Source: Microtetraspora niveoalba (GTDB lineage: Bacteria > Actinomycetota > Actinomycetes > Streptosporangiales > Streptosporangiaceae). From it: a DNA stretch of 64,000 bases. Below the pieces are notes generated by a model. That model was not told the origin of the DNA. It worked only from the letters and a program-made list of their open reading frames with translations, and did no database searches. A program made the position numbers and the translations under genes. This document shows, in pieces, positions 2,155 to 46,335 of the stretch (positions are counted from its first letter, which is position 1; each line of letters begins with the position of its first letter). The stretch spans positions 164,910-228,909 of the forward strand of contig NZ_BBYM01000011.1 of NCBI RefSeq assembly GCF_001570405.1, written 5' to 3'.

Positions 2155-3480
2155 ATGCGGAAACTCCCCCCGGTGGTCGCCATCCTCGCCCTCGCGGCGG
2201 CCGCGTGCAGCAACTCCGCGTCAGACAACCCCGCGGGCGGCAACAGCGCCGCCGCCTCCGCCCCCGCGGAGGCCAAGCCCCTCGCCGGCGTCACGGTCGA
2301 GATCGCCGCCAAGTGGACCGGCGACGAGCAGGCCAGCTTCGAGAAGGTCCTCAAGGCGTTCGAGGAGAAGACGGGCGCCAAGGTCACCTACGCCTCCACC
2401 GGCGAGGACACCGGCGCCTACCTCGGCCCGCGCATCCAGGGTGGCAACCCGCCGGACGTCGCGATCCTGCCGCAGCCCGGACTCGTGCAGCAGTACGCCG
2501 ACCAGAAGGCGCTCAAGCCGCTGTCCTCCGAGGTCCTGTCGCAGATCGACCAGAACTACACCCCGTACTGGAAGGAGCTCGGCTCCGCGGGCGGCCAGGT
2601 GTACGGCGTGCTCGTGAAGGCGGCGCACAAGTCCCTGATCTGGTACCGCCAGGGGGCCTTCGACGACGCGGGCGCCCAGGAGGCCGCGAGCTGGGACGAC
2701 CTGATCGGCAAGACCGCGCAGACCCTGGCCGACTCCGGCACCGCGCCGTTCGCGCTGTGCGCCGCCTCCGGCTGGACGCTCACCGACCTGTTCGAGAACG
2801 TCTACCTGTCGTCGGCCGGCCCGGAGAACTACGACAAGCTGGCCAAGCACGAGATCCCGTGGACGGACCCGTCGGTCACCACCGCGCTGGAGAAGATGGC
2901 CCAGATCTTCGGCAAGAAGGACTTCATGCTCGGCGGCTCGTCCGGCGCGCTGCAGACCGACTTCCCGACCTGCGTCACCCAGGTGTACGGCCAGAAGAAG
3001 GCCGCGATGGTCATCGAGGCCGACTTCGTCGCCGCCTCCGTCGGCCAGTCGGGCGCCAAGGTCGGCGAGGAGGCGAAGATCATGCCGTTCCCGAAGGCCG
3101 GCGACACCGAGCCCGTCGTGCTCGGCGGCGACGTCGGTGTCGTGATGAAGGACTCCAAGGGCGCGCAGGCGCTGCTGGAGTTCCTCGCCTCCAAGGAGGG
3201 CGGCGAGGTCTGGGCGAAGGAGCCCGGCTACCTGTCCCCCAACCGCAACGTCTCGCCGGACAACTACCCGAGCGAGCTGACCAAGCAGCTCGCGCAGACG
3301 ATCATCTCCGCGGGTGAGGCCGTCCGGTACGACATGTCCGACCTCGCGCCGAGCGCCTTCGGCGGCACCGACGGCAAGGGCGAGTGGAAGCACCTCCAGG
3401 ACTTCCTGCGCGACCCCAAGGACATCAAGGGCATCCAGCAGAAGCTCGAGGCCGACGCCGCCAAGGCCTACGGCAAGTAA
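2155..3480 (+). CDS. Carbohydrate ABC transporter substrate-binding lipoprotein (second, tandem SBP)
   Basis: 441 aa with lipoprotein signal (LAAAACSN). SBP family 1, possibly specific for alpha-glucoside or maltose-type sugars. Confidence 0.85.
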   Translation: MRKLPPVVAILALAAAACSNSASDNPAGGNSAAASAPAEAKPLAGVTVEIAAKWTGDEQASFEKVLKAFEEKTGAKVTYASTGEDTGAYLGPRIQGGNPPDVAILPQPGLVQQYADQKALKPLSSEVLSQIDQNYTPYWKELGSAGGQVYGVLVKAAHKSLIWYRQGAFDDAGAQEAASWDDLIGKTAQTLADSGTAPFALCAASGWTLTDLFENVYLSSAGPENYDKLAKHEIPWTDPSVTTALEKMAQIFGKKDFMLGGSSGALQTDFPTCVTQVYGQKKAAMVIEADFVAASVGQSGAKVGEEAKIMPFPKAGDTEPVVLGGDVGVVMKDSKGAQALLEFLASKEGGEVWAKEPGYLSPNRNVSPDNYPSELTKQLAQTIISAGEAVRYDMSDLAPSAFGGTDGKGEWKHLQDFLRDPKDIKGIQQKLEADAAKAYGK

Positions 3481-3492
3481 GGGGACAAGGCC

Positions 3493-5028
3493 GTGACCGA
3501 ACGGTTGAACGGCCCGCAGGCTCCCGGCGGCGACGACCTCGCCGCCGGGGCCTCCCCCGGACCGACAGACGCCTCCACGGCGCCCGCGGCGAGTTCCCCG
3601 GCGCCCCCTCCCGAGCCCCCGGCCGGCACCCGTCCGGCTGGGGACTCCCCCGAACCCCGTGCCTCCTCCGAACCCCCCGCTTCCGCGCAGTCCCCGGGCT
3701 CCTCCGAGGCGGCCGCGGCGGAGCCCCCCGCTCGTGGCGCCAAGGCGGCACGACTCGGCCCGTCACCCAAGATGGCGGTGCTCTTCCTGCTCCCGGCGCT
3801 CCTGCTGCTGGCCGCCTGGGTGATCTACCCCATCGTCTACTCGATCTTCCGGAGCCTGTACGACGCGGCCGGTGACGGCTTCGTGGGCCTGGACAACTAC
3901 CTGGCGATCTTCACGGACTCGGGCACGCTCACCACGATCAGGAACAACATCATCTGGGTCGTGGTGGCCCCGCTGATCGTGACCGTGCTCGGCCTGATGT
4001 TCGCGGTGCTGACCGAGCGCATCCGCTGGGCGACCGCATTCAAGCTCGTGCTGTTCATGCCGATGGCGGTCTCGCTGCTCGCCGCCGGCGTCATCTTCCG
4101 GCTCGTCTACGAGCAGGACCCGGACAAGGGCGTCGCCAACGCCGTCATCACCGTCGTGCACGACACCTTCAGCAGCAGCCAGGGCTATCCCGGCGCCCGT
4201 CCGCGGGAGAACGACGAGGCCCCCGCCGTGCTGAAGGGCGGCGACGTCGTCACCAGGCAGTCCGCGCAGCCCGGCGGGCAGGTCCTGATCCCGCTCGTCG
4301 GCCTGAAGCCGGACGCCGTCGCGAAGGCCCCTCCGGCCAAACCCGCCGGCTCCGGCGGCCTCAGCGGGACGGTCTGGCTCGACGTCGTACGCGGAGGCGG
4401 CGGCACGGTCAACCAGATCGACGACGCGGAGAAGGGGCTCGGCGGGATCACGGTCGAGGCGGTGGCGGACGGCCAGGTCAAGGCCACCACCGAGACGGCC
4501 GCCGACGGCACCTTCTACTTCTCGGGCCTCTCCGCCGGTTCGTACGACATCCGGCTCCCGAAGTCGAACTTCGAAGCGCCGTTCAACGGGCTCACCTGGC
4601 TCGGGCCGACCCTGATCACCCCGGCGATCATCGGCGCGTACATCTGGGTCTGGGCGGGTTTCGCGATGGTGCTGATCGCGGCCGGGCTCTCGGCGATCCC
4701 GCGGGACGCGCTGGAGGCGGCCCGCATCGACGGGGCCACGGAGTGGCAGGTGTTCCGGCGGATCACGGTGCCGCTGCTCGCACCGGTCCTGCTGGTCGTC
4801 TTCGTCACGATGGTCATCAACGTGCTGAAGGTCTTCGACCTGGTCTTCATCATCGCGCCGGGCTCGGTGCAACCGCAGGCGAACGTGATCGCGCTGGAGA
4901 TGTGGCGCGTGTCGTTCGGCGGCGGCGGCAACCAGGGCATGGGTAGCGCCCTGGCCATCTTCCTGCTGGTCCTGGTGCTGCCGTTCATGATCTTCAACAT
5001 CCGGCGGTTCAGGAGGGACGAGCGATGA
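3493..5028 (+). CDS. Sugar ABC transporter permease (MalF-like) with N-terminal Pro/Ala/Ser-rich extension and an inserted Cna-B/SdrD-B-like beta-sandwich loop domain
   Basis: 511 aa. Multiple TM helices and the EAA-type permease motif (IDGATEWQVFRRITVPL). The loop insert GITVEAVADGQVKATTETAADGTFYFSGLSAGSYDIRLP matches the SdrD-B / carboxypeptidase-regulatory-like signature. Confidence 0.85.
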   Translation: MTERLNGPQAPGGDDLAAGASPGPTDASTAPAASSPAPPPEPPAGTRPAGDSPEPRASSEPPASAQSPGSSEAAAAEPPARGAKAARLGPSPKMAVLFLLPALLLLAAWVIYPIVYSIFRSLYDAAGDGFVGLDNYLAIFTDSGTLTTIRNNIIWVVVAPLIVTVLGLMFAVLTERIRWATAFKLVLFMPMAVSLLAAGVIFRLVYEQDPDKGVANAVITVVHDTFSSSQGYPGARPRENDEAPAVLKGGDVVTRQSAQPGGQVLIPLVGLKPDAVAKAPPAKPAGSGGLSGTVWLDVVRGGGGTVNQIDDAEKGLGGITVEAVADGQVKATTETAADGTFYFSGLSAGSYDIRLPKSNFEAPFNGLTWLGPTLITPAIIGAYIWVWAGFAMVLIAAGLSAIPRDALEAARIDGATEWQVFRRITVPLLAPVLLVVFVTMVINVLKVFDLVFIIAPGSVQPQANVIALEMWRVSFGGGGNQGMGSALAIFLLVLVLPFMIFNIRRFRRDER

Positions 5029-6207: not shown

Positions 6208-6885
6208 ATGGCAGGGCGTCCACTAAACGAAATCATGGAAGCCGGTTGGGCCGCGGCCCTCGAACCCGTCGCCGAGCAGATCTCCGCGATGGGCGACTTC
6301 CTCCGGCAGGAGATCGCCGAAGGACGGCAGTATCTCCCCTCCGGGGCCAACGTGCTCCGCGCGTTCCAACAGCCCCTGGACGAGGTCCGGGTGCTGATCG
6401 TCGGCCAGGATCCCTACCCGACGCCCGGTCACCCGATCGGCCTGAGCTTCTCCGTCGCCGCCGATGTCCGCCCGCTGCCCGGCAGCCTGGTGAACATCTA
6501 CAAGGAGTACATGGCCGACCTCGACTATCCGCAGCCCGGCAACGGCGATCTCACCCCGTGGACGGAGCAGGGCGTGCTGCTGCTCAACAGGGTGCTGACC
6601 GTGATGCCCGGGAAGCCGGCTTCGCACCGGGGCAAGGGCTGGGAGCAGGTCACCGAGCGCGCGATCACCGCCCTCGTCGAACGGGGCGGCCCGCTCGTCG
6701 CGATCCTGTGGGGGCGTGACGCCCGGAACCTGCGGCCCATGCTCGGCCAGGTGCCGTGCATCGAGTCGGCCCACCCCAGTCCCCTGTCGGCGCGGAGCGG
6801 GTTCTTCGGATCCCGTCCGTTCAGCCGCGCCAACGAGCTCCTCGTACAGCAGGGCGCCGCCCCTGTCGAGTGGAAGCTTCCCTGA
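6208..6885 (+). CDS. ung: Uracil-DNA glycosylase
   Basis: Carries the family 1 UDG motifs GQDPYP and HPSPLS. Confidence 0.9.
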
Positions 6886-6909
6886 CCTCTGCCACTAGGA
6901 TCAACCACC

Positions 6910-7248
6910 ATGAGCGATGAAACGGATACCGGACGCTACCTCCGTCTGACGGTCGACCTTGTCGTCGAGGTCCAGGATGTCAAGGCGTTGCAGGCGGCGG
7001 CTCTGGCGGAGATCCGCCACCCGGACGCCGAGTTGGACGAGGACGAGCGCCGCGAGCAGATCGAGTTGGTCAACGCGGACGACACCGGGGCGGCGGCCCT
7101 CCAGTGGCTGATCGAGCCCGACCACGTCCTCGGCCTGGTCGAGCACGTCAGTGATGTGGAGCCCCGCGAGGCGATGCTCGGCGTCGAACCGTCTGACGGC
7201 ATCCTCGAAGACGAGGACGAGCACGACCACGACGACCACTCGCACTGA
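6910..7248 (+). CDS. Hypothetical acidic protein with His/Asp-rich C-terminal tail
   Basis: 112 aa with good GC3 codon bias. Ends in EDEDEHDHDDHSH, which may bind metal. No recognisable family. Confidence 0.5.
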   Translation: MSDETDTGRYLRLTVDLVVEVQDVKALQAAALAEIRHPDAELDEDERREQIELVNADDTGAAALQWLIEPDHVLGLVEHVSDVEPREAMLGVEPSDGILEDEDEHDHDDHSH

Positions 7249-7554
7249 GAACTCACCCAGAACCACCCGAAAACCCCGGCGCACCGGTCGCCGTCGGATC
7301 TCCGGCACACCCGTAGCCGTCAGATCCCCGGCACCGGTCCCCGTCGGCCAGCCGCATCGCATCCGTGCGTGCGCACCGGCACCGCCTCCCGGGCACCCGT
7401 CCCGGGACGCAACCCCGGCGGACCCAGGCTCGCTGTGCAGGTCCGGGTCCCCCGGCGCACAAGCAGCCGGCGGACCCCAGGGAGCCCGCACAGGTGGGGC
7501 CGGCGAGTCTGAACAGAGGTGCGAACAGCAGCGCGAACGGTGCGCCGAAGACGA

Positions 7555-8487
7555 TCAGGCTCCGAGAAGGTTCTCACGACGGGCGGCGAGGGCTTCCCGT
7601 TGCCGTGCCAGCTCCTCGCATTGAGCGGCGAGCCGGCCGAGCACGCCGTCGATCCAGCGGGCCACCTCCTGGACCTCCTGTCCGGTCCGCATGATCTTCT
7701 GATGCTTGTACATGTCGAAAATGACGTTGTCGAAGATCATGTCGGCGAACCAGCGCGTGTCCACTTTGGGAAGCTGAGGATTCGCCGCCACCCCCACGTC
7801 GGCGAGCTCCCGGGAGAACGCGTCGAGCGCACGCTGCGCCTGCCAGGCGGCCTGATCGGCGTCCCGGAGGTGGCCGTGCTCGATCATGTCGGCGATCCCA
7901 CCCCCGCCGAACACGTCCCAGGTCGACGCTCCGCGCGCCCCGCCGAGGGACCGCAGAACCTGCCCGACGGCGTTGGCCGCCACCATCCCGGCCTGCCGCG
8001 CTTCCCCGTGCTCGCGCAGATCGGCGTCGACATGCGCGAGTCTCTCGGCGATCTCGGCGAGCTCCCTGCCACGAGGGTCGTCGGAGTCGAGCAGCATCCG
8101 CTCCTTGCGTGCGAGGAGCGCGGCCAACTCTCCGTCGGCGTTCGCCACCTCGGCCAGGCTCGCGTCGGTGGAGCGAAGATCGGTCGCCAGCCACTCCAGC
8201 CGAGTCCGCTGGCCGTGGACACGTTGCCGTACGGCTTCCGCCTCGGCGCGCTCCCGGGCGAGCCGCTCTTCCTTGGTGCCGAAGAGCGAGGCGAAGAATC
8301 CGCCCCGCTCCAGCTTGACGACGTCGTGATCTTCCTTGGCCAGCTCTCGCTCCAGCTCGGCGAGCAGCTTGCGGACCTCGTCGAGCTGCCCGGTCAGGGT
8401 GGCGCGCTGCCTGCTCAGCCGCTCCCGGCGACGCGCCCGGTCCCTGGCGTCACGGATCTCTTCGTCAAGGGCGTCAAATGCGGTCAC
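7555..8487 (-). CDS. Hypothetical coiled-coil protein
   Basis: 310 aa, Arg/Glu/Ala-rich with heptad-like repeats. No catalytic motifs recognised. Confidence 0.55.
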   Translation of the reverse strand: MTAFDALDEEIRDARDRARRRERLSRQRATLTGQLDEVRKLLAELERELAKEDHDVVKLERGGFFASLFGTKEERLARERAEAEAVRQRVHGQRTRLEWLATDLRSTDASLAEVANADGELAALLARKERMLLDSDDPRGRELAEIAERLAHVDADLREHGEARQAGMVAANAVGQVLRSLGGARGASTWDVFGGGGIADMIEHGHLRDADQAAWQAQRALDAFSRELADVGVAANPQLPKVDTRWFADMIFDNVIFDMYKHQKIMRTGQEVQEVARWIDGVLGRLAAQCEELARQREALAARRENLLGA

Positions 8488-8626: not shown

Positions 8627-9717
8627 TCAGGCGGCGAGTAAGCCGGGGGTGCGGCAGAGCCAGTCGTTGAGGGTGCCGGTGAAGCCGATCGGCGGGCCGA
8701 CGCTGAGGCAGGAGCCATCGGCGGCACGGCTGCCGAGCCGTACACAGAATGGGCGTTGATCGAGATCAGGGATTCCTGAGTCTCGGGGCACATGACCATC
8801 GTGGTCGGGGATTCCTGCCCCTCGGGACACGTGGCCATCGTGGTCGGAGGTTCCTGAGCCTTGGGAGACGTGGCGATCGTGGTCGGGGATTCCTGCCCCT
8901 CGGGACACGTGGCGATCGTGGTCCGGGGTCCCGGACACTCGCGACGGACGGTGATCGAGGTCAGGCGGGCCGGAGGCGCACACAGGCGCGCCCTCGCCTG
9001 TCGTCCCTCCTATCCACAGGTGCTCGCCGATCGTGCGGCGCCTCGCCTCCGGACTCGCGGCGCTCCATGCGAGGTGCCCGGCGAGCAGGCGCCCCGCGAC
9101 GGCGCGGAGCAGGGAGACCGTGCAGAGGCCGTGCGCACAGGCGGCTCCCTCCAGCATGACCTCGGGCAGGCCGAACCGTCTGAGGCCGCGAGTCGTGACG
9201 GTGAGGCAGGTGCAGGCATCGGTCGCCGCCGGATCCCACGGCGGGCAGGAGCCCTCGGAGCCGATCTCCGTGCTCCAGCCGAGCCAGTCGTCCTCTAGCC
9301 GGAACTCCACCGGCTCCGTCTGGCACCCGGATTGATGAGGGACGATGCCGCCGGTGAGCACATCGACGATCACGCCCCGGCAGGCGTCGGCGACGCCGCG
9401 CGCCACGGCCCTGGCGACCTGCGCGGCCTCGGGCTGCTCGGCGAGGGACGCGGTGGCGGTGACCACGACATGGTGGCGGGCCCCGCGCACCGCGTCCCGT
9501 CCCTCGTCGCCGAGGCTGACCCGCCGCCATGGCGACTGGGCGGCGGGAAACACCCGCATGCCCAGCCGAGGCGTGCCGAGCGCCCGCGCGGCGGCCCTCC
9601 TGTGCGGCCCGCTCATCCGCCAGGGAACGATCGAGTCCAGCTCAGCCGGCGGGCGTTCGGCCGCGACGACGAACACCGAGGTGGTCTCGGCCGGGACGGG
9701 ATAGGTGATCTTCATGG
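8627..9717 (-). CDS. Hypothetical protein with C-terminal 13-residue tandem repeats
   Basis: The ATG (MKITYPV...) is preceded by AGGAGGA. The C-terminus carries 5 copies of PDHD(R/G)HVS(R/Q)G(A/S)GI, encoded by an in-frame 39-bp DNA repeat. Confidence 0.5.
8768..8962. repeat. 39-bp tandem direct repeat, 5 copies, in frame within the 8627-9717 ORF
   Basis: Consensus gggattcctg(a/c)cnctcgggacacgtggc(c/g)atcgtggtcg, repeated head-to-tail without spacers. Confidence 0.8.
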
Positions 9718-10117: not shown

Positions 10118-11356
10118 TCACCCGCCCCGTACGGCGCCGCTCAGGAGCGCGGCGGCCGAGGCGGACCACCGCCTGACCTTGGGCCCGTGCCTGCGCCACC
10201 AGGTCCGCACCCAGAGCCCCTGTACGCCCGCCAGCACCGCGACCACTATCGCCGCGTCGACGACCGCCGGCGCGTCGCCGCCGTTCAGCAGGGTGGCGAA
10301 CGCCGGCAGCGCGATGGCCGCGAGGGCGGGGATCACGATCGTCCCCGCGACCGCCAGACACACCGCCGTCCCCAGCACGAGCAGCAACGTGTACAGCCGC
10401 ACCGCCGAACGCTCACGCCGGGAGAAGCGCGCCAGCGGGCTCACGCCGCCCCTGCCCGTGAGGCGCCCGATCAGGAACCGTCCGTACGCCACGCCGTCGC
10501 CGTACAGGTTCCTGCATCCGGCGAGATCCTGGGCGACGAAGTAGAGGTCGGTCCGCATGAAGATGAGGAGTTGGAAGCTCATCGCGTCGATCTGGGTCAG
10601 CACGACGATGGAGAGGGCGGTGTGGACGCCACCGCCCGGAGGAACGACGCACAGCAGGACGAACCCGGCAGCCGCGATGGCGGCGTCCAGGGTCATGCCG
10701 GCGAGGTAGACGGTCATCCGGACGTGCTTCTCCTCGCCCCAGACGCCGGATACGTCGGTCTGCACCACGAGGAACTGCAGGCGCGATCCAAGGGTGATCC
10801 GTCCGGGCACGCCGGCGGCCCGTGCGGTGCACAGATGCGCGAGCTCGTGCAGCATGACCAGGGACCAGGTGATGGCGATCTGGGTGAGCAGCGAGACGGT
10901 GCCGAAGCGGCTCCACGCCATGACGCTCGGGCTGGGCATGATCTCGGGCCGTACGGCGAGGGCGGCCAGCCCGCAGAGGATGAGCGCCACCAGCCCGGCG
11001 CGCACCCCCGGACGCAGGGTCCAGCGGACGTGACGGGGTTTCAACCAGGGAAGCGACGGGCTTTCCCTCCCGTCGTCGCCGGTCGGCCTGCCGTCGATCT
11101 CGGCGACGAAACCCACGCCCATGAGCGCCGCCACGAAGTCGGCCACGTCGACGTCCGTCCCGGTCTCGGCGGTGAGGCGTTCCGCGACACCGTCGACGGG
11201 GCGTCCCTCGGCCAGCAGCTCGATGACCCGCTTGCCGATGTCCGGGAAGGCGACGAACTCTCCCGTCTCCACCCGTCCGACGATCCAGTCGGAGCCGTCG
11301 CGGCGCGTACGGAGCGGGTGAAGCCGCACCCGCGACGTCCCGGTCACGACGTGCAT
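10118..11356 (-). CDS. Membrane HExxH zinc-metalloprotease-like protein with N-terminal PqqD-like RiPP recognition element (RRE)
   Basis: N-terminus (WIVGRVETGEFVAFPDIGKRVIELLAEGRPVDGVAERLTAETGTDVDVADFVAALMGVGFV) matches the PqqD/RRE pattern. It is followed by about 8 TM helices and the motif HELAHLCTARAAG. Alternative GTG start at 11458. Confidence 0.7.
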   Translation of the reverse strand: MHVVTGTSRVRLHPLRTRRDGSDWIVGRVETGEFVAFPDIGKRVIELLAEGRPVDGVAERLTAETGTDVDVADFVAALMGVGFVAEIDGRPTGDDGRESPSLPWLKPRHVRWTLRPGVRAGLVALILCGLAALAVRPEIMPSPSVMAWSRFGTVSLLTQIAITWSLVMLHELAHLCTARAAGVPGRITLGSRLQFLVVQTDVSGVWGEEKHVRMTVYLAGMTLDAAIAAAGFVLLCVVPPGGGVHTALSIVVLTQIDAMSFQLLIFMRTDLYFVAQDLAGCRNLYGDGVAYGRFLIGRLTGRGGVSPLARFSRRERSAVRLYTLLLVLGTAVCLAVAGTIVIPALAAIALPAFATLLNGGDAPAVVDAAIVVAVLAGVQGLWVRTWWRRHGPKVRRWSASAAALLSGAVRGG

Positions 11357-11547: not shown

Positions 11548-12657
11548 TCACACCGCGCATGTGCGACATCCGGCTTCGCCTCGGGGGAACTCGGCATATA
11601 TCGGCTGCTGCGGGGCGATGAGGTTGGTGCCCTGGATGAAACCGGCGATGATCGCGGGGACGCCGGTGATGACGCGGAGAACGCCGTGGGCGACCAGGTT
11701 GCCGCACAGTCCCGCCGACGTGGCGATCGCGCCGCCCCCTCCGAGATCGACCGGACGGTTCGGGGCGCCGGTCCGCCGGTCCCCGGGCGGGATCCGCTTC
11801 CGGTCCTCGATGCGCTGCATGCACTCGTAGCAGGCTCCGCGTCCCGGAACGAAGACACCGGTGGTGACGAGCGGCCCGCTGTAGCCACCGCCCACCCACG
11901 GGATCCCGGCGTCGAAGCAGGCCCGGCTGGCCCACACCCGGATGCCGTCCTCTCCCTTGGGCTCGTCGGCGCACAGGGCCAGCACGTCGAACCCCGGCAG
12001 CAGGTCGGCCAGCTCATGCTCGCTCCGGACGCGCGACGAGGCGCCGGTCACCTCGATGTCGGAGTTCAGTGCTTTCAGCCTCTCCACGGCGGCGTCCACC
12101 TTGGGACGGCCGACGTCCTCCTCGGCGTAGAGGAGCTGCCGGTTGAGGTTGGACAGTTCGACCCGGTCGTCGTCCACCAGGTGCAGGACACCCACCCCGG
12201 ACGCCGCGAGGGCCAGCGCGGTCGACGCGCCCGCGCCGCCCACGCCGATCAGCAGGACCCGCGACCGGCGCAACCTGAGCTGGGCGTCCCAGCCGTGCTC
12301 GCGCGGCGTGAGGTCCACCCACCGGAAGAAGGCGTGACCGCGGCTGTAACGGTCGCGCTCCCGCCTGCTGAGCTCGGGGGCCTCCGTCGCCCCGGCGTCC
12401 TCGATGTGGCCGGTGCCGACGAGCTGGGCGACTATCGCGACCGCGTCGTGCCGGGTCAGTTCCGGAAATCCCGACCGCACCACTTCGGCGACGTCGGCGC
12501 ACGTACGCGTGCCGTTCATCGCCTCGAGAGCCGTCCACACCCAGCCGTGTGGGTCGTCGATTTCGTGGGCCAGCCCGTAGATGTCGCCTCCGATGCGTAT
12601 CCGGCCGTCGTCGAGGCGATAGGCCGCGTGCTCGGGCTTTATTCTCGGCAACCGCAA
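11548..12657 (-). CDS. MccB/PaaA-like E1 (ThiF/MoeB family) adenylyltransferase with N-terminal RRE/peptide-clamp domain
   Basis: Rossmann motif LLIGVGGAGASTALALAASGVGVLHLVDDDRVELSNLNRQ and an RYSR motif. Two CxxC pairs (CYEC and a C-terminal CRTC) fit a zinc tetrathiolate. About 90 aa of PqqD-like N-terminal domain. TTG start with GGAGG upstream; the ORF could extend to 12762. Confidence 0.8.
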   Translation of the reverse strand: MRLPRIKPEHAAYRLDDGRIRIGGDIYGLAHEIDDPHGWVWTALEAMNGTRTCADVAEVVRSGFPELTRHDAVAIVAQLVGTGHIEDAGATEAPELSRRERDRYSRGHAFFRWVDLTPREHGWDAQLRLRRSRVLLIGVGGAGASTALALAASGVGVLHLVDDDRVELSNLNRQLLYAEEDVGRPKVDAAVERLKALNSDIEVTGASSRVRSEHELADLLPGFDVLALCADEPKGEDGIRVWASRACFDAGIPWVGGGYSGPLVTTGVFVPGRGACYECMQRIEDRKRIPPGDRRTGAPNRPVDLGGGGAIATSAGLCGNLVAHGVLRVITGVPAIIAGFIQGTNLIAPQQPIYAEFPRGEAGCRTCAV

Positions 12658-13014
12658 TCGGGCCTCCGGTAAAGATGGGAATCCCCCCGACCATTTCTCC
12701 CCCGTTTCGCTTCCATGTCTCTTGCGTTTCGTTTCCGCATCTCTTCGGCACCCCTTCCGCACGCTTTCCCCACCGGCCCCTGCTGTTTTCCGCGCCGTTT
12801 CCGCGGCGCGCTCGTACGCCGTCCTCCATCGGACACGGGAGGGCCGGGGCGGACGGAAGGCGGGTAAAGGCGCCGGAGGCGGCGGAAACCAGAGAAGGGG
12901 GCGGCGGGAGACGCGGTGAGGGGCGAAGACGTGGGCCCGGACCCGGGAAACGCGCAGAGCCGCGATCGGGCGCCGCGATGGCCTCCGCTCGTGGCTCCGG
13001 CCGCGCCGGGGAAT

Positions 13015-13184
13015 CAGTTACCGGTGGAGTTGCTCAGCCGCTCGGTCGTTTCGAGCCGGTCGAGCCTGCGAATCTCGATCTTGACCGCTCCTTCGGCGGA
13101 CCCGTTTTCCGCGGGCTTGTTCTCGTCGAGGTCCCTGAGTTCGCTCACGAGCTTCCTCTTTTCATCGGTTCGCCGCATTGACAT
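13015..13184 (-). CDS. Putative RiPP precursor peptide (56 aa, C-terminal Asn), candidate MccA-like substrate
   Basis: Unannotated small ORF, below the 60-aa cutoff of the ORF track. It encodes MSMRRTDEKRKLVSELRDLDENKPAENGSAEGAVKIEIRRLDRLETTERLSNSTGN. GC3 is about 80%. It sits immediately upstream of the MccB-like gene on the same strand and opens directly after an in-frame TGA. Local GC content dips at this position. Confidence 0.4.
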
Positions 13185-13277
13185 TGGCGACCAATTGGCA
13201 GTTGTCGCGGTTGTCAGGTTAGATCATCGGCAACCCGAGGGAAAGGTGTGATTTTCCAGGGGATTGCGAACCGCATG

Positions 13278-14570
13278 TCAGGGTGCTTTCAGCGACGTCG
13301 GCGCCTCCTCCGCCGCCGCCCGGTCCCGCCCCACCGGGGCGACGCCGCTGTGGAAACGCGTCATTCCGCGGAAAAAGAGGGCGGCGAGCGGAACGGCGAA
13401 ACCGCCGATCGTGCCGATCACCAGCAGTGCCGACCGGCCGATCGCCGTACTGACCGGGCCGGTCAGCGCGAGCCCGAGGGGCATCATCACCGAGGAGGCC
13501 AGCCAGTCGACGGATGTGACCCGGGCGAGCCGTTCCGGAGGGATCTCCCGCTGCAGATTCATGACCCACTGCACCGCGAAGATCTCCAGTCCCAGCCCGG
13601 CGACGATGTAGCAGCCGTACAGAAATCCGGACGACACGGGCCAACTGAGCGCGAGCGGCACGGCACCGTACAGCGCGAGGCCGATGACACCGGTCAGCCC
13701 GGCCCGGCCGGGTTTCCATTTCATGCTGATGAGTCCGCCGGCCAGGCCCCCGACCGAGAGCAGGGCGAGCGCGGTCCCGTACACGGCGTCGCCGCCGAAC
13801 GTGTCGCGCGAGATGAGGGGCAGCAGGACCTGCGCCGGCGCGACAGTGAGCATCAACTGGAGTGCGACGGCGATGATGACGCCGGTCACCCACGGCCGCC
13901 GCCACACTTCGGAGAGGCCGTCCGCGATCTCCCGTACGGCCGATGCCCGCGGGGCGGCGGCGACCGCCGGTTCGCGCAGCGGCAGGAGCAGGACGAGGCC
14001 GAGCATGTAGGCCGCCAGCACGGCGAGGAACCCGATCCGGGGCGACCAGACGGTCACCACGTACGCGCCGAGGCCCGGTCCGACGATCGCGCCGATCCGC
14101 CAGGAGACCGCGCCCATCGCCACGCCGGCAGCGCGCTGGTCCGGGGTGAGCACGGACGACAGGCAGGCCTGGTACGCGGGCCGGTGGAACGCCTCCGCCG
14201 CCCCCACCAGGAAGACCAGGAACGCGAGGAGCAACGCGGGGGCGTCGCCGCGCAACCCCACGGCGACCACGCAGCACTGGAAGCCAAGGGAGACGATCAT
14301 CACCGTTCTGCGGGGCAGCCGGTCCGCCCACAATCCTCCGAGCAAGGCGAAAAGGACGAGCGCGATCCACCGTCCGGTGAATATCGCCCCCACGGTCGAC
14401 GCGGTCCCGCCCGAGTTGAGTGCGGCGATGGTCACCGTGACCGGGAAGATCTGGTCGGCCGCGACCGACATCGTGAAACTGAGCCACAACAGACGGAACT
14501 CGCGATTTCGCACCAGGGATCCGTCGGCGGGACGGGCCGAACGAATGAGGTTTCGCAAACGAGTGCGCAT
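13278..14570 (-). CDS. MFS transporter (possible exporter or immunity pump of the adjacent cluster)
   Basis: 430 aa, 12 predicted TM helices, N-terminal FRLLWLS motif typical of MFS. Same strand, and 93 nt upstream of the small ORF. Confidence 0.85.
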   Translation of the reverse strand: MRTRLRNLIRSARPADGSLVRNREFRLLWLSFTMSVAADQIFPVTVTIAALNSGGTASTVGAIFTGRWIALVLFALLGGLWADRLPRRTVMIVSLGFQCCVVAVGLRGDAPALLLAFLVFLVGAAEAFHRPAYQACLSSVLTPDQRAAGVAMGAVSWRIGAIVGPGLGAYVVTVWSPRIGFLAVLAAYMLGLVLLLPLREPAVAAAPRASAVREIADGLSEVWRRPWVTGVIIAVALQLMLTVAPAQVLLPLISRDTFGGDAVYGTALALLSVGGLAGGLISMKWKPGRAGLTGVIGLALYGAVPLALSWPVSSGFLYGCYIVAGLGLEIFAVQWVMNLQREIPPERLARVTSVDWLASSVMMPLGLALTGPVSTAIGRSALLVIGTIGGFAVPLAALFFRGMTRFHSGVAPVGRDRAAAEEAPTSLKAP

Positions 14571-17714: not shown

Positions 17715-18777
17715 TCAGCTCCGGGCGGAGGCGAGCCGGGGCAGGTCCCGGCTGACCTCGACGAGGAACCATGAGGGCAGCACCGGAGCGCCGTCGTCGT
17801 CGGTGGCGATGACGAGCTGGGCGCATTCGAGCGAGATCTCGGCCAGCTCGACGAGCAGGGTCTTGGCCCGGAACGCGAGCTGCCGCCCGGCCGCCGGGGC
17901 GTGCTCCTTCGAGGCGGGCAGCCCGCGGACGAGCCGGGCGCGGAACGTCTCGGCCAGGAAGTACAGCAGGTCGCGGTCCTCGGGCCCGCGCGGCCAGCCC
18001 GCGTCGCCCTTGAGCACGGCGTCCAGGTCGTACGCGTGCCGCACCGTCTTGACGTACGCGCGGAACGCCGAGGCGTGCGACGCGGTGAGCGTGCCGTGGG
18101 CGAGGACGGCCAGCGTGTCGTCGTCGAGGCCCTCGCCGTACGAGTGGACGGCGTCGGACAACATGTGCCAGCCGCGCGGCGTGGAGAACGGCTCCTCGGT
18201 CTTCGGCGCGGGGCTCCACAGGTGGTCGGGCCGCTGCACGAGATAGTCGGCGATCCAGGGGTGGATGCCGTTGCCGGCCGCCCATGTCAGCCAGTCGTCG
18301 GCCGAGGCCCGCAGGTGGACGTGCACCATCCGGTTGACCAGAGCGGACGCCATCGGCCTGGCGAGGGCGTTGTCGGACGCCCGGTTGCCCGCTCCGATGA
18401 CGACCGACCCCTCGGGCAGCTCGTACGCGCCGATGCGGCGGTCGAGGATCAGCGAGTAGAACGCCTTCTGCACCTCGGGAGACGAGGCGTTGAGCTCGTC
18501 GAGGAACAGGCAGTACGGCTCGTCGCGCGCGATGGTCTCGGGGGGTGCGAACCGGCTGCGGCCGTCCACGATCTGGGGCACGCCGATGAGGTCCTCGGGG
18601 GCGAGCTGCGTGCCGAGCAACGTGACGCAGTCCAGCCCGAGCGACGCGGCGAACGCCTGGACCAGCGAGCTCTTCCCGATGCCCGGCGCTCCCCAGAGGA
18701 ACACCGGCCGCACGACGGCGACGTGCAGCAGCACGTCGGGAAGCTGCGCCGGGGTCACGGTCACGGTGGCCTGCATG
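17715..18777 (-). CDS. MoxR-like AAA+ ATPase (AAA_5)
   Basis: Walker A GAPGIGKS and Walker B LFLDELN. Alternative GTG start at 18812. Confidence 0.85.
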
Positions 18778-18900
18778 GCGACCAGGCTCCCGTACGACCT
18801 ACCGGAAAGCACCCGATTTATCGGGACATGCCCGGCTGGCAGAAGCTCAGTGACCGGCTGACAGCAGCCGGGAACGCGACCTGTGCGTCAGACCTGTGTG

Positions 18901-20604
18901 TCAGACCTGGGCGACGGCGAGGGACTGCGCGGGGAGGTAGAGGTCGCCGTCCATCATCCGGACCGCGTCGTCGGAGGCGAGCAGCACGTGCTTGGCCCCC
19001 GGCGAGAGCCGTACGGGGATGGGGAAGGAGCCGAAGTTGGCCGCGACCCGCAGGGACCCCCGGTCCATCACCAGGAAGTGGCGCTCCTCGTCGAAGCGGA
19101 CCCGCACGCGGTCGAGGCGCGGGTCGGCGAGGTCGGGATGCGTCTTGCGCAGCGCGATGAGGTCGCGGTACCAGCCGAGCAGCGACATCCCGCCGTCCTC
19201 GGAGATCTCGCTCCAGTCGAGCTTGGAGCGCAGGAACGTGGCCTCGTCCTGCGGGTCGGGAGCCTTCCAGTCGTAGCCGAACCCCTCGAACTCGCGCCTG
19301 CGCCGCTCGGCCTCGCCGTCGGCGAGCGCCGGGTCGTGGTGGTCGGTGAAGAAGTAGAACGGCGTCCGCGCCCCCCACTCCTCGCCCATGAACAACATCG
19401 GCGTGAACGGCGAGGTGAGCAGCAGGCCGGAGGCGATCCAGAGCTGCTCGGGCTCCATGCGGTCGCCGAGCGGCCGGTTGCCGATCTGGTCGTGGTTCTG
19501 CACGCAGCAGACGAACCGGTATCCGGGGACGCCGTTCGCCGGCCTGCCGTGGCTGCGCCCCCGGAACGACGAGTAGCCGCCGTCATGGAAATATCCGGAC
19601 GTGAGCACCTTGGCCAGGGCGGACAGCTCGGCGAAGTCGGCGTAGTAGGCGTGCCGCTCCCCCGTCACGGCCGCGTGGACCGCGTGGTGGACGTCGTCGT
19701 TCCACGCCGCGTGCATCCCCAGCCCGCCCGCCTCGCGCGAGGTGACCAGGCGCGGGTCGTTCAGGTCGGACTCGGCGATCAGCGTGAGTGGGCGTCCCAG
19801 GTTCGTGGACAACGCCTCCACCTCGGCCGACAGCTCTTCGAGGAAGTGCACCGCGCGCCGGTCGTGCAGCGCGTGCACGGCGTCCAGCCGGAGGCCGTCG
19901 ACGTGGTAGTCGCGCAGCCACTGCAGCGCGTTCTCGATGAAGTAGCGCCGGACCTCGTCGGAGCCGGGGCCGTCCAGGTTGACCGCGTCGCCCCAGTACG
20001 ACCCCTTGAAGCCGTGCAGGTACGGCCCGAACTTCGACAGGTAGTTCCCCGACGGCCCCAGATGGTTGTAGACGACGTCGAGGATCACGCCGATCCCGGC
20101 CCGGTGGCAGGCGTCCACCAGGTCCTTCAGCCCGTCGGGCCCGCCGTACTCCTCGTTGACCGCGTAGAGGTCGACGCCGTCGTACCCCCAGTTGCGCCGC
20201 CCCGGGACCGGCGGCACCGGCATGATCTCGACGAAGTCGACGCCGAGGTCGACCAGGTGGCGCAGCCGCTCCGCGACGGCGGCGAAGGTGCCCTCCCGCG
20301 TGAACGTGCCGACGTGCAGCTCGTAGATGACCGATCCGCGCAGGTCGCGACCGTGCCAGTCCTGGTCGCTCCAGGTGTACCGGTCGTGGTCGTAGACCCG
20401 GCTCGGCCCCTCCACGCCGTACGGCTGCCGCCGCGTCCGGGGGTCGGGGAAGGGCCCCTCCCCGTCCACGTGGAACGCGTAGTCGTCGCCGTGCTCACCT
20501 CCGGGGGCGTGCCACCAGCCGCCCGGGCCGGCCGTCATGTCCCGCCTGACGCCCCCCGACTCGACCTCCACGCGTTCCGCCTCGGGTGCCCAGACCTCGA
20601 ACAT
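18901..20604 (-). CDS. treZ: Malto-oligosyltrehalose trehalohydrolase
   Basis: GH13 motifs (GVILDVVYNH, GLRLDAVHAL). N-terminus MFEVWAP is preceded by GGGAGAGG. The ORF could start at a GTG at 20643. Confidence 0.9.
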   Translation of the reverse strand: MFEVWAPEAERVEVESGGVRRDMTAGPGGWWHAPGGEHGDDYAFHVDGEGPFPDPRTRRQPYGVEGPSRVYDHDRYTWSDQDWHGRDLRGSVIYELHVGTFTREGTFAAVAERLRHLVDLGVDFVEIMPVPPVPGRRNWGYDGVDLYAVNEEYGGPDGLKDLVDACHRAGIGVILDVVYNHLGPSGNYLSKFGPYLHGFKGSYWGDAVNLDGPGSDEVRRYFIENALQWLRDYHVDGLRLDAVHALHDRRAVHFLEELSAEVEALSTNLGRPLTLIAESDLNDPRLVTSREAGGLGMHAAWNDDVHHAVHAAVTGERHAYYADFAELSALAKVLTSGYFHDGGYSSFRGRSHGRPANGVPGYRFVCCVQNHDQIGNRPLGDRMEPEQLWIASGLLLTSPFTPMLFMGEEWGARTPFYFFTDHHDPALADGEAERRRREFEGFGYDWKAPDPQDEATFLRSKLDWSEISEDGGMSLLGWYRDLIALRKTHPDLADPRLDRVRVRFDEERHFLVMDRGSLRVAANFGSFPIPVRLSPGAKHVLLASDDAVRMMDGDLYLPAQSLAVAQV

Positions 20605-20646
20605 GCCTCTCCCGTCGTTGTCGTCGTATATGGGGGAGTCCACGGG

Positions 20647-22970
20647 TCACCGGCCGAGGATCGCGACCGGATACCAGGACAGAAGGTGCCCCATCGGGAC
20701 ACGTCCGGTGTGCTCGCGTCCCGTCAGCAGGTCGCGCCACCGGCCCGGGGGAAGCATGAGGGTCTCGCCTCCCCAACCGCCGTGCCGTTCGAGCCCCACG
20801 GGCAGGCGGGTCGCCACCACCACCGCCTGGTCCCCGCGCGCGAAGGCGACCGCGTGCTCGCCCGCCTCCACCGGCGCGTACGGCGCGACCGGGTCGAGCC
20901 GGCTCCGCAGCCGCAACGCGGTGGCGGTGACCAGCATCTTCTGCCCGTCCCAGGTGGTGGGGCGGGCGCCCGGGACGAGCACGTCGGCCAGCAGCGCCCG
21001 GCGCGCGCGGAAGTCCACCGGACGCCGGTTGTCCGGATCGACCAGCGAGAAGTCCGTGGTCTCGTTGCCCTGGTAGACGTCGGGGACCCCCGGCATCATG
21101 AGCTGGACCGCCTTCTGGCCGAGGGAGTTGACCCGGGCGTACCGGTCCACGACGGCCGTGAAGGCGGCCACCGAGCCGCCGCAGACGTCGATCGCCTCCC
21201 GGGCGAACCGCCGGACGCCGCTCTCGTACGCGGGGTCGCGGTTCTGCCAGGAGATCGATGTCTTGGCCTCTCGTGCCGCCTTGAGCAGATATTTCGTGAA
21301 ACGCTCGGGGCTGATCGGCCAGGACGCCATCAACGTCTGCCAGCCCAGATAGTCGAGCCGGGGATCGAACGCCACCTCGGCCGCCCAGGAGTCCACCGCG
21401 AGCGCCCACTCGTCCGGCATCTCCGACAGAACCGAGAGCCGGGCCCGCACGTCCTCCGACCGTTTCGTGTCGTGGGTGGACAGGGTGGTCATCGTCCGCG
21501 GCGGCAGCCCGGCGCAGAACTCGTGGAACTCCGCCGCCGACACCCCGAACCGGTCCGGCTCGCCGCCGACCTCGTTGAGAGCGGCCAGCGGGAACCACCG
21601 ATAGAGCGCGGTGTCCTCCACCCCCTTGGCCATCACCGGGCCGCAGGTCTGCTGGAACCGGGTCACCGCCTCGGCCGGGCCGTACAGGACCAGGTCGGCG
21701 GCCCGCGCGACGGCGGCGGGATCGGCGCGTCCGGCCGCCTCCCGCGCCGCCCTCCGCACGATGTGGACCGTCTCCACCGACGGCGGCTCGCCCGGGTCGA
21801 CGTACGCCCGGTAGACGGGCATCGCGGCGAGCAGCTCGACCACCGCCTCGCGCGGCACCCGCCCGTCCTCGTCCTCGTCCGGGTCGCCGTCCCCGTCGCC
21901 GTCCCCGGCGTGCGGAGCGGGCACCGTCATGGCGGCGGTGAGCCGGTCGATCTCGCCGCGGAAGAACAGCTCGACGACGTGCTTCTTCGCCTCGTACCGC
22001 ACGGCCTCGTAGTCGTCGGTCACGCCCGTGTGCCGGGCGAACGTCTTGACGAGCTCCTCCCGCGACGCCGGGTCCACGAACAGGCGGGTGACCATGTTGA
22101 GCGCGTCGTACCCGGTCGTGCCGTCGCACGGCCAGTCCTCCGGCAGCCGCTCGCCGTCGATCAGGATCTTCTCGACCCACAGCGGGCCGGGGACGCGGGG
22201 ACGCAGCCGCCGGAGATAGCCGTACGGGTCGGCCAGGCCGTCCGGGTGGTCCACGCGGAGACCGTGGAGCACCCCCTCGTCGAGGAGCGTGAGGATCACC
22301 GCGTGGGTGGCCTCGTGGACCTCCGGGTCCTCCACCCGCAGCCCTATGAGCGAGGAGACGTCGAAGAACCGCCGGTAGCCGGGGCTCTCGCGCCAGCCGA
22401 CCAGCCGGTAGTGCTGGACGCGGAGCAGCTCGGGCAGCGGGAGGCCCTCGGTGCCCGGCCTGATCGGGAACTCGTGCTCGTGGTAGCGCAGCACGTCACC
22501 GTCCACGGAGAACCCATCGGCCCCGTCCCCGCCCTCGTTACCGGCTCCGGCGGCGTACGGGTCGCCCGCGTCGTCGCCGAGCACCGGGAGCGCGACCGGC
22601 CACTCCAGGTCGAACCACCGGGCGTAGGGCGAGGCCGGGCCGTCCCGCAGCGCCGCCCACAGCGGGGCGTTGCGCGACTCGGGAACCGGCACGGTCATGT
22701 GGTTCGGCACCACGTCGGCGACCAGCGGCAGGCCCCTCGCGGCCAGGGCGCGCAACCCCGGCAGGCCCCCGAACTCGGCCCGTACGGCGGTGTGGTCGGT
22801 GACGTCGTACCCGTGCCCGGACTCGGGCACGGCCTGCAGGATCGGCGAGAGATAGAGGGCGCCGACGCCGAGCTCGCGGAGATAGCCGGTCAGCTCGGCC
22901 GCGTCCGCGAAACCGAGGTCGGGGGTGAGCTGCAGTCTGTAGGTCGAGGTCGAGGTCGAGGTCGAGGTCA
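20647..22970 (-). CDS. treY: Malto-oligosyltrehalose synthase
   Basis: Conserved STYRLQLTPDLGF start and GH13 TreY motifs. Start assigned to a GTG preceding (TS)4; the ORF is open to 23133. Confidence 0.85.
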
Positions 22971-23177
22971 CGGCACCGCCCTTCGTCGGGTCCTTCCGGG
23001 CCGGGGCGCGCCCCGCGGATCTCACCGGCCGCCGCCGCGTCGCCGCGCCGGCCCCGGCGCACCCGTCGCCCGGCATCCCCCGTGCCGGGTGGCGCGGCCC
23101 CGCGGTGATCCGTACCCCTGGCTCCCGTCTCATAGTGACGGCGCGGACACGTCACCGCCAGGCCATCGCGGCGCGCG

Positions 23178-25304
<2,127 letters not shown>

Positions 25305-25426
25305 CGTTCCCACCCTCCGGGGACTTCGACAGTTCGGCGATGTTAAAGACATGTGTCCGGGATTTCCCAGGGAGCGGCGACGGGGTCACCGAGCCGGGCG
25401 GGCCGTCGTTCCGGTCCGGCTCCCGG

Positions 25427-26674
25427 TCAGGCGCCTCCGGCGGCCTTCCGTGACTCCTCGGCCGCCCAGGTGAACACGCCCCTCGCCATCAGGGACGCCT
25501 CCGACGCGGCGCGGGCGGCGTACACCCGGGCGCGCACGAGATGCGCCGCGGGATCGTGCGGCGCGGCCTGCGCGGCCATCTCCGCGAAGTGCCCCGCCAG
25601 CCGCTGGTCGCCGTCGGCCAGCGCCTTGAGCGCGGCCTCGCACAGCCGCTCCGTGCCTCCCGCCAGCTCGGCCACGGCCGCGGCGAGCACGGCGTCGGGC
25701 GCGGGCTTCAGGTGGGCGGGGTTGCCGTCGTACCAGCCGCCGTACAACCGCCAGATGTTGCGCACCACGAACTCCGGATCGTCGTAGTGCGGCCGCAGGT
25801 AGGGCCGGTCCGCCAGCCGCGCCGGAGGCCGTACGGCCCGGACGATGTCGTCCAGCCTGGCCCCCTCGTTGAGCATCTCCAGGGAGCGTTCGACGATGCT
25901 CTCCAGCCACTCCGCCGTCTCGGTCAGCGCCTGCTCGACCCGGTCGGCGCCGAAGATCGGGGCGCCGTGGCTCGGCAGCATGGTCTCCGCGCCGAGCGCG
26001 GCCATCCGGCGCAGCGCGACGGCCCACTCGCGGGGGTAGCGCTGCACCTTCTGCGGGTTGCCGCAGTTGGGGCTCACCCAGATGAACAGGTCGCCGGGAA
26101 GCAGGACGCGCCGCGACGGCACCCACCCGACGCTCGCGTCGTCGGTCTCGCCCTTGGCGTGGAAGAGCTCGACGGGCCCGACCGTCAGCTCGTCGCGGTA
26201 CGTCACGTCGGGGTAGCGGTACTCGGTCGGCCAGGTCAGGTCCGGCACCTGGAACTGCCGCTGGTTGATCACCGCGTTGTAGCCGTTCGTGAGGATGTAC
26301 CGGTCGAAACGGGCGGGGAGCGCCTCGTGCGCCACCACCGTGGGCCTGGGCCTCGCCGCCGTGTCGGCCTCCGCGTCGAACGGCCCCACGCCCGACACGT
26401 GGTCGATGTGCCCGTGCGAATAGATCACGGTCGTCACCGGCTCGTCGGTCCACGCCCGCAGCTCGGCGTGCAGCCGGTCCGCGTCGAAGGGGTTGCCGGT
26501 GTCGAACAGCATCACCTCCCCGCCCTCGCGAAGCGCGATCGTGTTGCCGAACCCGCTGCGGAAGCCGACGCCGTCGGCGACCTCGACGAAGCCCTGCCCG
26601 GCGAGTCCCGTGTGCACGATGTTGTCGGGGAGCTCGCCCCGCCAGACGCTGTCGGCGTACTCGGTGATGTTCAT
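25427..26674 (-). CDS. MBL-fold metallo-hydrolase, alkyl/aryl-sulfatase-like
   Basis: HGHIDH metallo-beta-lactamase motif. Overall similarity to SdsA1/BDS1-type alkylsulfatase N-terminal and dimerisation regions. Start at MNITEYADS. Confidence 0.7.
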   Translation of the reverse strand: MNITEYADSVWRGELPDNIVHTGLAGQGFVEVADGVGFRSGFGNTIALREGGEVMLFDTGNPFDADRLHAELRAWTDEPVTTVIYSHGHIDHVSGVGPFDAEADTAARPRPTVVAHEALPARFDRYILTNGYNAVINQRQFQVPDLTWPTEYRYPDVTYRDELTVGPVELFHAKGETDDASVGWVPSRRVLLPGDLFIWVSPNCGNPQKVQRYPREWAVALRRMAALGAETMLPSHGAPIFGADRVEQALTETAEWLESIVERSLEMLNEGARLDDIVRAVRPPARLADRPYLRPHYDDPEFVVRNIWRLYGGWYDGNPAHLKPAPDAVLAAAVAELAGGTERLCEAALKALADGDQRLAGHFAEMAAQAAPHDPAAHLVRARVYAARAASEASLMARGVFTWAAEESRKAAGGA

Positions 26675-26878
26675 CGGGAAGCCAGCCTTTCCTTGTCCGG
26701 CTCCGGGCGGATGGCGGCGCGGCCGGCGCGCCTCCCCCGGCATGAGCAGTCCCGCGACGGTCGACGCCGTGCCGCACCCCTCGGACGGATCCGCCGCTCG
26801 CTGTACCAATGCCCCGTGACCGCCGGTGGCAGCACGCCCGCCATGGCGGCGACCGCGGTGCCGGTGCTCGGCCGCGCG

Positions 26879-30223: not shown

Positions 30224-30275
30224 CCCGGCCCGGCACCGGGCAGGTCACTTCGGCCCGGCTCGACGCCGGGGCACG

Positions 30276-46207: not shown

Positions 46208-46335
46208 CTCACCGAAGGGCCGGGCCACACGATCCGGGCCCGGCCCCGGACGCGCCACGCCGCGCCCGGCACCGGCGAAGCACGCCCAGGTTCGGCGTGA
46301 CCTCCGGACACATCCGCGACACTCGGCGAGGCGGC

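Follow-up and report, generated by a model that had tools for sequence, protein, structure and literature searches.

A short peptide gene beside an E1-like enzyme of Microtetraspora niveoalba as the probable precursor gene of an actinobacterial RiPP operon

We describe a short open reading frame (ORF) in a 64,000-nucleotide stretch of the Microtetraspora niveoalba genome (the window; contig NZ_BBYM01000011.1, positions 164,910 to 228,909) and propose that it is the precursor-peptide gene of a small operon for a ribosomally synthesized peptide that is modified post-translationally (RiPP), consisting of an MFS exporter, the precursor, an RRE-ThiF enzyme, and an RRE-M50 protease. We put the probability of this reading at about three in four. 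An initial annotation of the window had already read the ORF as a precursor gene beside an E1 and an HExxH gene, and this assignment is now well supported by a coding signature and by E1-linked homologues in 71 of 80 loci. The chemistry by which the peptide would be modified we can only infer, and the specific route proposed below should be regarded as doubtful.

The gene lies on the minus strand. The ORF first reported at 13015–13184 is present, with its end shifted by one base, as the stop codon TGA occupies 13016–13014; the translation quoted for it matches exactly the 56 residues read from the first ATG (13184). The GC content at third codon positions (GC3), given as about 80%, is 0.79, and the reported GC dip is borne out by values of 0.56–0.62 across 13000–13299 against ~0.70–0.76 in the flanks and 0.716 in the entire window. 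The in-frame TGA said to lie directly before the ORF is found 13 codons 5′ of the first ATG (13226–13224). That neither ATG is preceded by a Shine-Dalgarno sequence was correctly noted, and this is because translation is predicted to begin at a downstream GTG (13148) with its own ribosome-binding site. The Shine-Dalgarno sequence at this position, AAGAGGAAG (13152..13160, minus strand), ends 3 nucleotides 5′ of the GTG, with its core GAGG 6 nucleotides upstream.

Conservation agrees with this start. We compared the window with seven orthologous loci (eight sequences in all), which come from Microtetraspora fusca, M. malaysiensis (two strains), two other Microtetraspora sp., Planotetraspora sp., and Sphaerisporangium rhizosphaerae. 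All eight have a start codon at the position of window 13148, a GTG throughout except for an ATG in L083. The Shine-Dalgarno sequence before it is nearly invariant (GAGAAGAGGAA[AG]CTC, then [GA]TG), and the ribosome-binding site consensus of the orthologues, GA(A/G)AAGAGGAA(A/G)CTC, is strong and correctly spaced from the start. Both upstream ATGs are missing from orthologues L002 and L003. We considered and rejected a 56-residue, ATG-initiated product on the grounds that the ATGs have no ribosome-binding site and are lost in these two loci, while a GTG or ATG with AAGAGGAAG is kept throughout. On sequence grounds, the translated product is predicted to be the 44-residue, GTG-initiated form, (M)SELRDLDENKPAENGSAEGAVKIEIRRLDRLETTERLSNSTGN, encoded at 13014..13148 on the minus strand (44 codons plus TGA). 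The gene had been described as unannotated; RefSeq does list a hypothetical protein of Microtetraspora niveoalba that is identical to the 44-residue form (WP_281196900.1). The E1 protein of the window is likewise 100% identical to a RefSeq protein of this species.

The data show the ORF to be a protein-coding gene under purifying selection, with GTG 13148 as its predicted start. In a codon alignment of the eight orthologous sequences, the ratio of nonsynonymous to synonymous change (pN/pS) is 0.44 overall, 0.83 in the first 21 codons, and 0.16 in the C-terminal 23. Differences at codon positions 1, 2, and 3 number 193, 128, and 304, and many of the changes in the motif codons described below are synonymous (ATT/ATC, AGG/CGG, CTC/CTG, GAA/GAG). 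The single indel, in L003, is an in-frame one of 9 nucleotides. The initial annotation had suggested looking for synonymous substitution across relatives and for frameshift or loss of the ORF; the former is plain from the pN/pS of the C-terminal part, and all seven close relatives in which the E1 and HExxH genes persist have the ORF uninterrupted and in frame.

The peptide belongs to a large family that accompanies homologues of this E1 gene across Actinomycetota. A profile from 24 E1 homologues was scanned over one genome per species, and 80 loci were fetched. E1 relatives are present in at least 593 species-level genomes, and the fetched loci derive from Streptosporangiaceae, Streptomyces, Kitasatospora, Nocardia, Amycolatopsis, Glycomyces, Actinoallomurus, an Acidimicrobiales metagenome-assembled genome, and others. 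A hidden Markov model (HMM) of the small peptide matches short frames beside E1 in most of the 80 loci, and nine database homologues of the window peptide were found. The search pattern [IVLM]x[IVLM][RK]x[LV][DGKAE]xx[ER][TPI][TIAKV], with a stop no more than 16 residues further on, retrieves 70 ORFs in 65 of the 80 loci, every one adjoining E1, and the family HMM adds six divergent members to reach 71 loci. As a control, 852 kb of E1 loci read in six frames gave 0 matches in reversed sequence and a mean of 0.1 in shuffled sequence. In the six frames of the window the pattern occurs once, in the peptide ORF at 13044–13079. The peptide gene may lie upstream of E1 in either orientation, codirectional or divergent, or a short way downstream, so its association with E1 survives rearrangement. 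Five family peptides compared with Pfam and NCBIfam matched no model.

Family members range from 22 to 56 residues, and those of Streptomyces have only 22–25 (for example MANKIEIRPLDKKETTGDSGGNGGS). In the window peptide, the long acidic N-terminal stretch would therefore be dispensable, which fits its near-neutral pN/pS. What the family shares is the motif [IV]x[IV]RxLD[KR]xETT, encoded in the window by the codons for IEIRRLDRLETT (13044..13079, minus strand) and presumed to be the recognition sequence of both peptide-binding (RRE) domains of the operon. The best reading of the peptide is a leader ending in VKIEIRRLDRLETT and a putative core, the modified part, of ERLSNSTGN (13017..13043, minus strand). 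Among the 70 members, mean pairwise identity is 0.72 in the motif and ~0.25 in the tail, which is 6–13 residues long and occurs in 54 distinct versions. Hypervariable as they are, the tails have regularities when counted from the C-terminus: Ser stands at position -6 in 42 of the 70 and at -7 in 17 more, 3–6 residues from ETT; position -5 is mostly Asn or Gly; Gly stands at -2 in 42; and Cys takes comparable places in a Cys-rich subfamily. The last residue is N in 21 members, S in 15, A in 11, G in 9, T in 5, and E in 3, and the tails terminate in G-X or S-N rather than GG, with the exception of L066.

Several loci hold one leader with different tails. L050 (4439–4910) has three copies, with the tails GVCQDCNYA, QGCPTHGSG, and QACPANNPGCGAG, and L071 (4631–4949), L039 (4679–4902), and L005 (6134–6310 and 8453–8722) have two each. 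A conserved leader, a variable core, and multiple copies are hallmarks of RiPP precursors. Some distant family members have Cys-rich or Trp-containing cores. Cys-rich cores among the multi-copy loci include CVCECHCG, GLCCDDCG, and QACPANNPGCGAG, and a separate subfamily has ETI instead of ETT together with Lys-containing cores such as ENKAIAR and QSKAISR.

Both proteins encoded downstream of the peptide gene are shown by the data to carry RRE-type peptide-binding domains. The E1/ThiF-like adenylyltransferase (11548..12657, minus strand) starts at TTG 12657 or 12651, after GGAGG, and has an N-terminal peptide-binding domain of the PaaA/MccB type. It matches Pfam ThiF at 1.3e-48 and PaaA-like_N weakly. 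Its best sequence matches in the PDB are PaaA (8e-32, residues 2-202, N-terminal domain included) and then MccB (1e-25). Its AlphaFold model has a mean predicted local distance difference test score (pLDDT) of 88, and the best Foldseek matches are full-length MccB chains (TM 0.67–0.73 over ~370 columns), followed by PaaA; ThiF and MoeB structures match the catalytic domain of the model only. The modeled E1 adopts the fold of MccB and PaaA, with the N-terminal peptide-binding domain included.

The HExxH protein (10118..11356, minus strand) is a PqqD-like RRE fused to a putative M50/site-2-protease-like membrane domain with the sequence HELAH, and is the presumed leader peptidase. HELAH is invariant among its homologues, many of which are labeled "putative peptide zinc metalloprotease protein" by JGI. 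The window protein has a weak Pfam PqqD match; Peptidase_M50 (PF02163, E<=0.01) is matched by 20 of 25 homologues and not by the window protein itself. Its model has a pLDDT of 90.5; the N-terminal domain can be superposed on the lasso-peptide RRE proteins TbiB1 and B1 (TMt ~0.70), and the membrane part matches the Methanocaldococcus jannaschii site-2 protease 3b4r with a probability of 0.80 and a TMt of 0.42. The RRE-M50 gene directly follows E1 in 49 of the 80 loci. Directly upstream of the peptide gene lies the presumed exporter, an MFS efflux-type transporter (13278..14570, minus strand; Pfam MFS_1 3e-33, with NCBIfam H+ antiporter and Tet(V)-like matches).

We propose that the strand-like leader segment IEIRRL docks onto the RRE domains and that the ThiF-like domain would then adenylate a carboxylate of the tail with ATP, the likeliest target being the C-terminal alpha-carboxylate of Asn44. 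We favor this group because it is the sole carboxyl common to every family member: in the E1-adjacent members L052, L060, L015, and L016 the Glu of ETT gives way to Gln or Gly, several others have G, A, or K in place of the Asp of LD, and some cores have neither Asp nor Glu. The placing of Ser, at -6 or -7 from the C-terminus in most members but at a varying distance from ETT, also speaks for this group. All five characterized ThiF-like enzymes of RiPP pathways prime a peptide carboxylate by adenylation for attack by a nucleophile (PMC12596934). Here, an internal nucleophile would capture the acyl-adenylate and close a small ring. Our guess is the Ser at -6 (Ser39), which would yield a 6-residue macrolactone, with Cys taking this role in Cys-rich variants. 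Cleavage near ETT by the M50 membrane protease would take off the leader and the MFS pump would carry the product out of the cell, while the conserved stem after the stop codon may keep the precursor transcript above the enzyme transcripts.

Several observations weigh against this scheme. The leader/core boundary, the adenylation site, and the nucleophile were all placed from patterns in the aligned peptides alone. The Ser at -6 could reflect recognition by the active site rather than ring closure, and the near-invariant ETT could be part of the modified region, not of the leader. The MFS gene is syntenic in the seven closest loci only, and the stem after the stop codon (12956–12998) has no compensatory change or covariation among the eight orthologues. 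The M50 protein is missing in 31 of the 80 loci, many Streptomyces loci have an M14 gene instead of or besides M50, and many Streptosporangiaceae loci have a DUF6879 gene; processing therefore appears to differ between subfamilies, and the true substrate of E1 may be a C-terminally trimmed peptide.

The M14 gene, which is zinc-carboxypeptidase-like with an HPDE motif, immediately follows a divergent precursor in ~25 Streptomyces-type loci (L024, L031, L033, L037-L039, L042-L049, L051, L057, L060, L062, L065, L067, and L073-L076; ~3400–4800, minus strand). The tails in these loci end in Gly-X with one exception, which suggests a function in C-terminal trimming or immunity. Gly at -2 was considered as a marker of M14 loci and dropped as non-discriminating, since it is also common where M14 is lacking. 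The DUF6879 gene, with a product of ~200 residues, recurs beside the precursor/E1 pair in ~17–20 Streptosporangiaceae-type loci (L004-L008, L011, L014-L017, L020-L023, L040, L063, and L069; ~6300–8200, plus strand). The 64-kb window has no homologue of either.

Other readings of the operon can be weighed against the same evidence. PaaA and GrcB adenylate Glu side chains (PMC12596934), and E1 might do likewise with Glu33 of ETT or the Asp of LD, in which case the motif would itself be modified rather than serve in docking alone. PaaA is the closest sequence match of E1, N-terminal domain included, and ETT is the most conserved feature directly abutting the variable tail. The replacements of both residues listed above, the window peptide's lack of a Glu-Glu-Asn motif, and its lack of a C-terminal Cys nevertheless make side-chain activation unlikely. 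The initial annotation had instead drawn an analogy with mccA. In a Trojan horse of the microcin C type, the MccB-like E1 would turn the C-terminal Asn44 into a peptidyl-succinimide and then into an N-P linked aspartamidyl-adenylate. The window peptide does terminate in ...TGN, recalling MRTGNAN, MccB chains are the best fold matches of the E1 model, Asn is the last residue in 21 of 70 family members, and an MFS exporter adjoins the peptide gene, just as the exporter MccC belongs to the mcc operon. MccB chemistry, however, needs the side-chain amide of Asn (PMC12250964), and the closest orthologues, L002 and L003, whose E1 is 76% identical and whose synteny is shared, end in Ala and Ser, as do the homologues P0008 and P0009. 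Because the C-terminal Asn is not kept, either in these orthologues or family-wide, we reject the microcin C model as quite improbable and the mccA analogy with it. A 44-residue peptide with an RRE-type leader also contrasts with a heptapeptide, and no MccD, MccE, or MccF-like gene was found among the neighbors scanned with Pfam and NCBIfam.

The Gly at -2 in many tails could also point to a miniature carrier or tag that follows the logic of ubiquitin, ThiS, or QbsE: trimming would expose the penultimate Gly, and E1 would adenylate it for thiocarboxylate formation or for conjugation with a second molecule or a protein, with no ring being formed. Adenylation of a C-terminal Gly is the classical reaction of E1-type enzymes, and QbsE of Pseudomonas has its C-terminus trimmed by the metalloprotease QbsD and then adenylated by QbsC. 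The prevalence of Gly at -2 and the M14 genes that follow precursors with G-X tails would suit such a pathway. We nonetheless consider it very improbable, as members of down to 22–25 residues are too short to form a beta-grasp fold, the neighbors examined include no gene for a rhodanese, E2, or ligase, the M14 gene is not found in the window, and RiPP systems typically show hypervariable tails, several precursor copies, and a protease fused to an RRE. The peptide family also departs from ubiquitin-like and sulfur-carrier proteins (ThiS, MoaD, QbsE), which have a beta-grasp domain and a C-terminal Gly-Gly, a terminus found here in L066 alone. A more basic objection is that the ORF might encode nothing. 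It could be a frame left open by chance within conserved 5′ untranslated or regulatory sequence of the E1 operon, or else an upstream ORF with a regulatory function for which the peptide sequence is irrelevant. It is indeed short, lies in a GC dip, and adjoins upstream sequence that is conserved and looks non-coding. The comparisons presented here effectively refute this idea: pN/pS is 0.16 and synonymous changes run the length of the motif, the motif is kept across genera at ~45–50% E1 identity, in three arrangements and with differing nucleotide sequences, the ribosome-binding site is conserved, and control matches number 0–0.1.

The DNA around the precursor gene contains further conserved elements. 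A promoter-like sequence, TTTCCC-17 nt-TAACCT (13216..13244, minus strand), lies inside the GC dip, and both hexamers are kept in the eight orthologous upstream regions as TTTCCC-17 nt-TA(A/T)(C/T)CT. A promoter function is suggested by this pattern; a strict sigma-70 scan called no promoter, this element included. A conserved CAATGTCAA block at ~13185–13177 spans the first ATG (13184), and its DNA is kept even where the ATG is lost.

Downstream, an imperfect hairpin or inverted repeat, GGAGCCnCGAnCGG ... CCGATCGCGGCTC (12956..12998, minus strand), starts 16 nucleotides past the stop codon and is followed by GCGCGTTTCC. It has 15 predicted pairs, and among the eight orthologues its arms are invariant and its loop varies. 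This element is a plausible candidate for an attenuator or an mRNA-stabilizing stem, and could equally be a protein-binding inverted repeat or operator. The initial annotation had pointed to a 5-bp hairpin after the stop codon, ccggc-gcg-gccgg, which is present at 12997–13009. It is not kept in the orthologues and was rejected as a conserved terminator; the adjacent 12956–12998 stem with GCGCGTTTCC is the better attenuator candidate. A terminator scan returned just two terminator-like sites, on the wrong strand and at chance level. The precursor gene was said to lie immediately 5′ of E1, whose start is in fact 356–362 nucleotides downstream. This spacer (12657–13013; 356 nucleotides, or 362 with TTG 12651) is unusually long and C-rich, with ccgcc and ctcc runs; in the orthologues it measures 130–290 nucleotides and has no coding signal. 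The entire spacer was also considered as a structured RNA and rejected, as the fold of 381 nucleotides (12640–13020) has z = -0.32 and is not unusually structured.

The window neighbors scanned with Pfam and NCBIfam comprise the MFS transporter, a YhhN protein, the RRE-M50 protein, and two proteins without a family. Downstream of the M50 gene, 8627–9508 and 7555–8487 (both minus strand) encode proteins of 293 and 310 residues with no significant Pfam family. These two genes are syntenic in all Microtetraspora loci and not in other genera, and they may belong to the operon. Unrelated genes on the minus strand at 17715–30244 encode a MoxR-type AAA ATPase, three alpha-amylase-family proteins resembling those of trehalose/glycogen metabolism, an alkyl-sulfatase-like metallo-beta-lactamase, and a large BTAD/AAA (SARP/LuxR-like) regulator. 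Farther along the window are a tricorn-like protease (46066–49749) and a DUF3686 ATPase (55708–61119).

With 8 million papers searched, we found no paper or curated protein family for the peptide motif or for a ThiF/RiPP/actinobacteria system, although the literature searched was incompletely covered and an earlier description is possible. Neither of two reviews from 2025 on ThiF-like RiPP enzymes cites an actinobacterial case (PMC12596934, PMC12250964), and the IndF paper counts 27,400 RRE-ThiF fusions as largely unexplored. The five known ThiF-RiPP chemistries, namely phosphoramidate, indolizidinone, thiolactone, cyclic imide, and indolylamide, yield a different scaffold in each family. It is possible, at somewhat less than even odds, that the family described here is a large new actinobacterial RiPP class whose RRE-ThiF enzyme installs a modification outside these five. 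A candidate product of such a class is a macrolactone joining Ser to the C-terminal carboxylate, similar to the small cyclic autoinducing peptides (AIPs).

Our analysis supplies a probable substrate gene for a widespread actinobacterial branch of ThiF-like enzymes, a fertile source of new peptide chemistry that is still young. A simple signature suffices to find precursors of just 22–25 codons that annotation had missed, and the correct start codon allows the right peptide to be made. The predictions of reactive groups are testable, and the evidence speaks against the obvious analogy with microcin C. The Ser/Gly/Asn-rich products could be secreted signaling molecules rather than antibiotics. 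Should they be small cyclic signaling peptides, the family would matter for signaling between cells of Streptomyces and its relatives. Streptomyces is known for its use of a Ser/Gly-containing extracellular oligopeptide, still unidentified, that BldK imports.

The proposed system works like the IndF, EnfB, GrcB, PaaA, and MccB clusters but fails the defining precursor features of each. With microcin C7 (MccA/MccB) of E. coli it shares a ThiF/E1-like enzyme for adenylation that has an N-terminal peptide clamp and gives the best fold match, a 5′-to-3′ order of precursor gene, stem-loop, and enzyme gene, an MFS exporter, and, in the window, a C-terminal Asn. It differs in the length of the precursor (44 residues with an RRE-type leader as against 7), in the turnover of that Asn among close orthologues, in its RRE-M50 protease, and in the absence, among scanned neighbors, of counterparts of MccD/MccE for aminopropylation or of MccF/HIT for immunity. 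Pantocin A (PaaP/PaaA) of Pantoea offers the closest solved protein by sequence, PaaA (8e-32), and a leader-bearing precursor of ~30–44 residues; the system described here, however, has no Glu-Glu-Asn core and no PaaB-type oxygenase among its neighbors, and the conserved Glu is dispensable in some members. The epipeptide operon of Bacillus subtilis (YydF/YydH) provides a parallel in YydH, an M50-type membrane protease encoded beside a small precursor gene. There, a radical-SAM epimerase modifies the peptide, a role that E1 would fill here, and YydH is not, to our knowledge, known to carry a fused RRE.

The IndA/IndF (indolylamide), EnfA/EnfB (cyclic imide), and GrcA/GrcB (thiolactone) systems of Streptococcus and Enterococcus likewise combine RRE-ThiF enzymes with short C-terminal cores. 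The peptides described here have an unrelated, Ser/Asn/Gly-rich leader and core with no Trp or WWIII motif, belong to the phylum Actinomycetota, and are accompanied by a membrane M50 protease fused to an RRE, as against an M16 protease or none. The window core ERLSNSTGN has neither Cys nor Trp, and so departs from both the GrcB type (Glu with a C-terminal Cys) and the IndF type (Trp in an NWYFI-like core). Both IndF and EnfB act on the C-terminal alpha-carboxylate, which they activate to form a small ring at the C-terminus, and the Ind, Enf, and Grc clusters have the same minimal set of precursor, ThiF enzyme, protease, and transporter that we find in Microtetraspora niveoalba (PMC12596934, PMC12150305).

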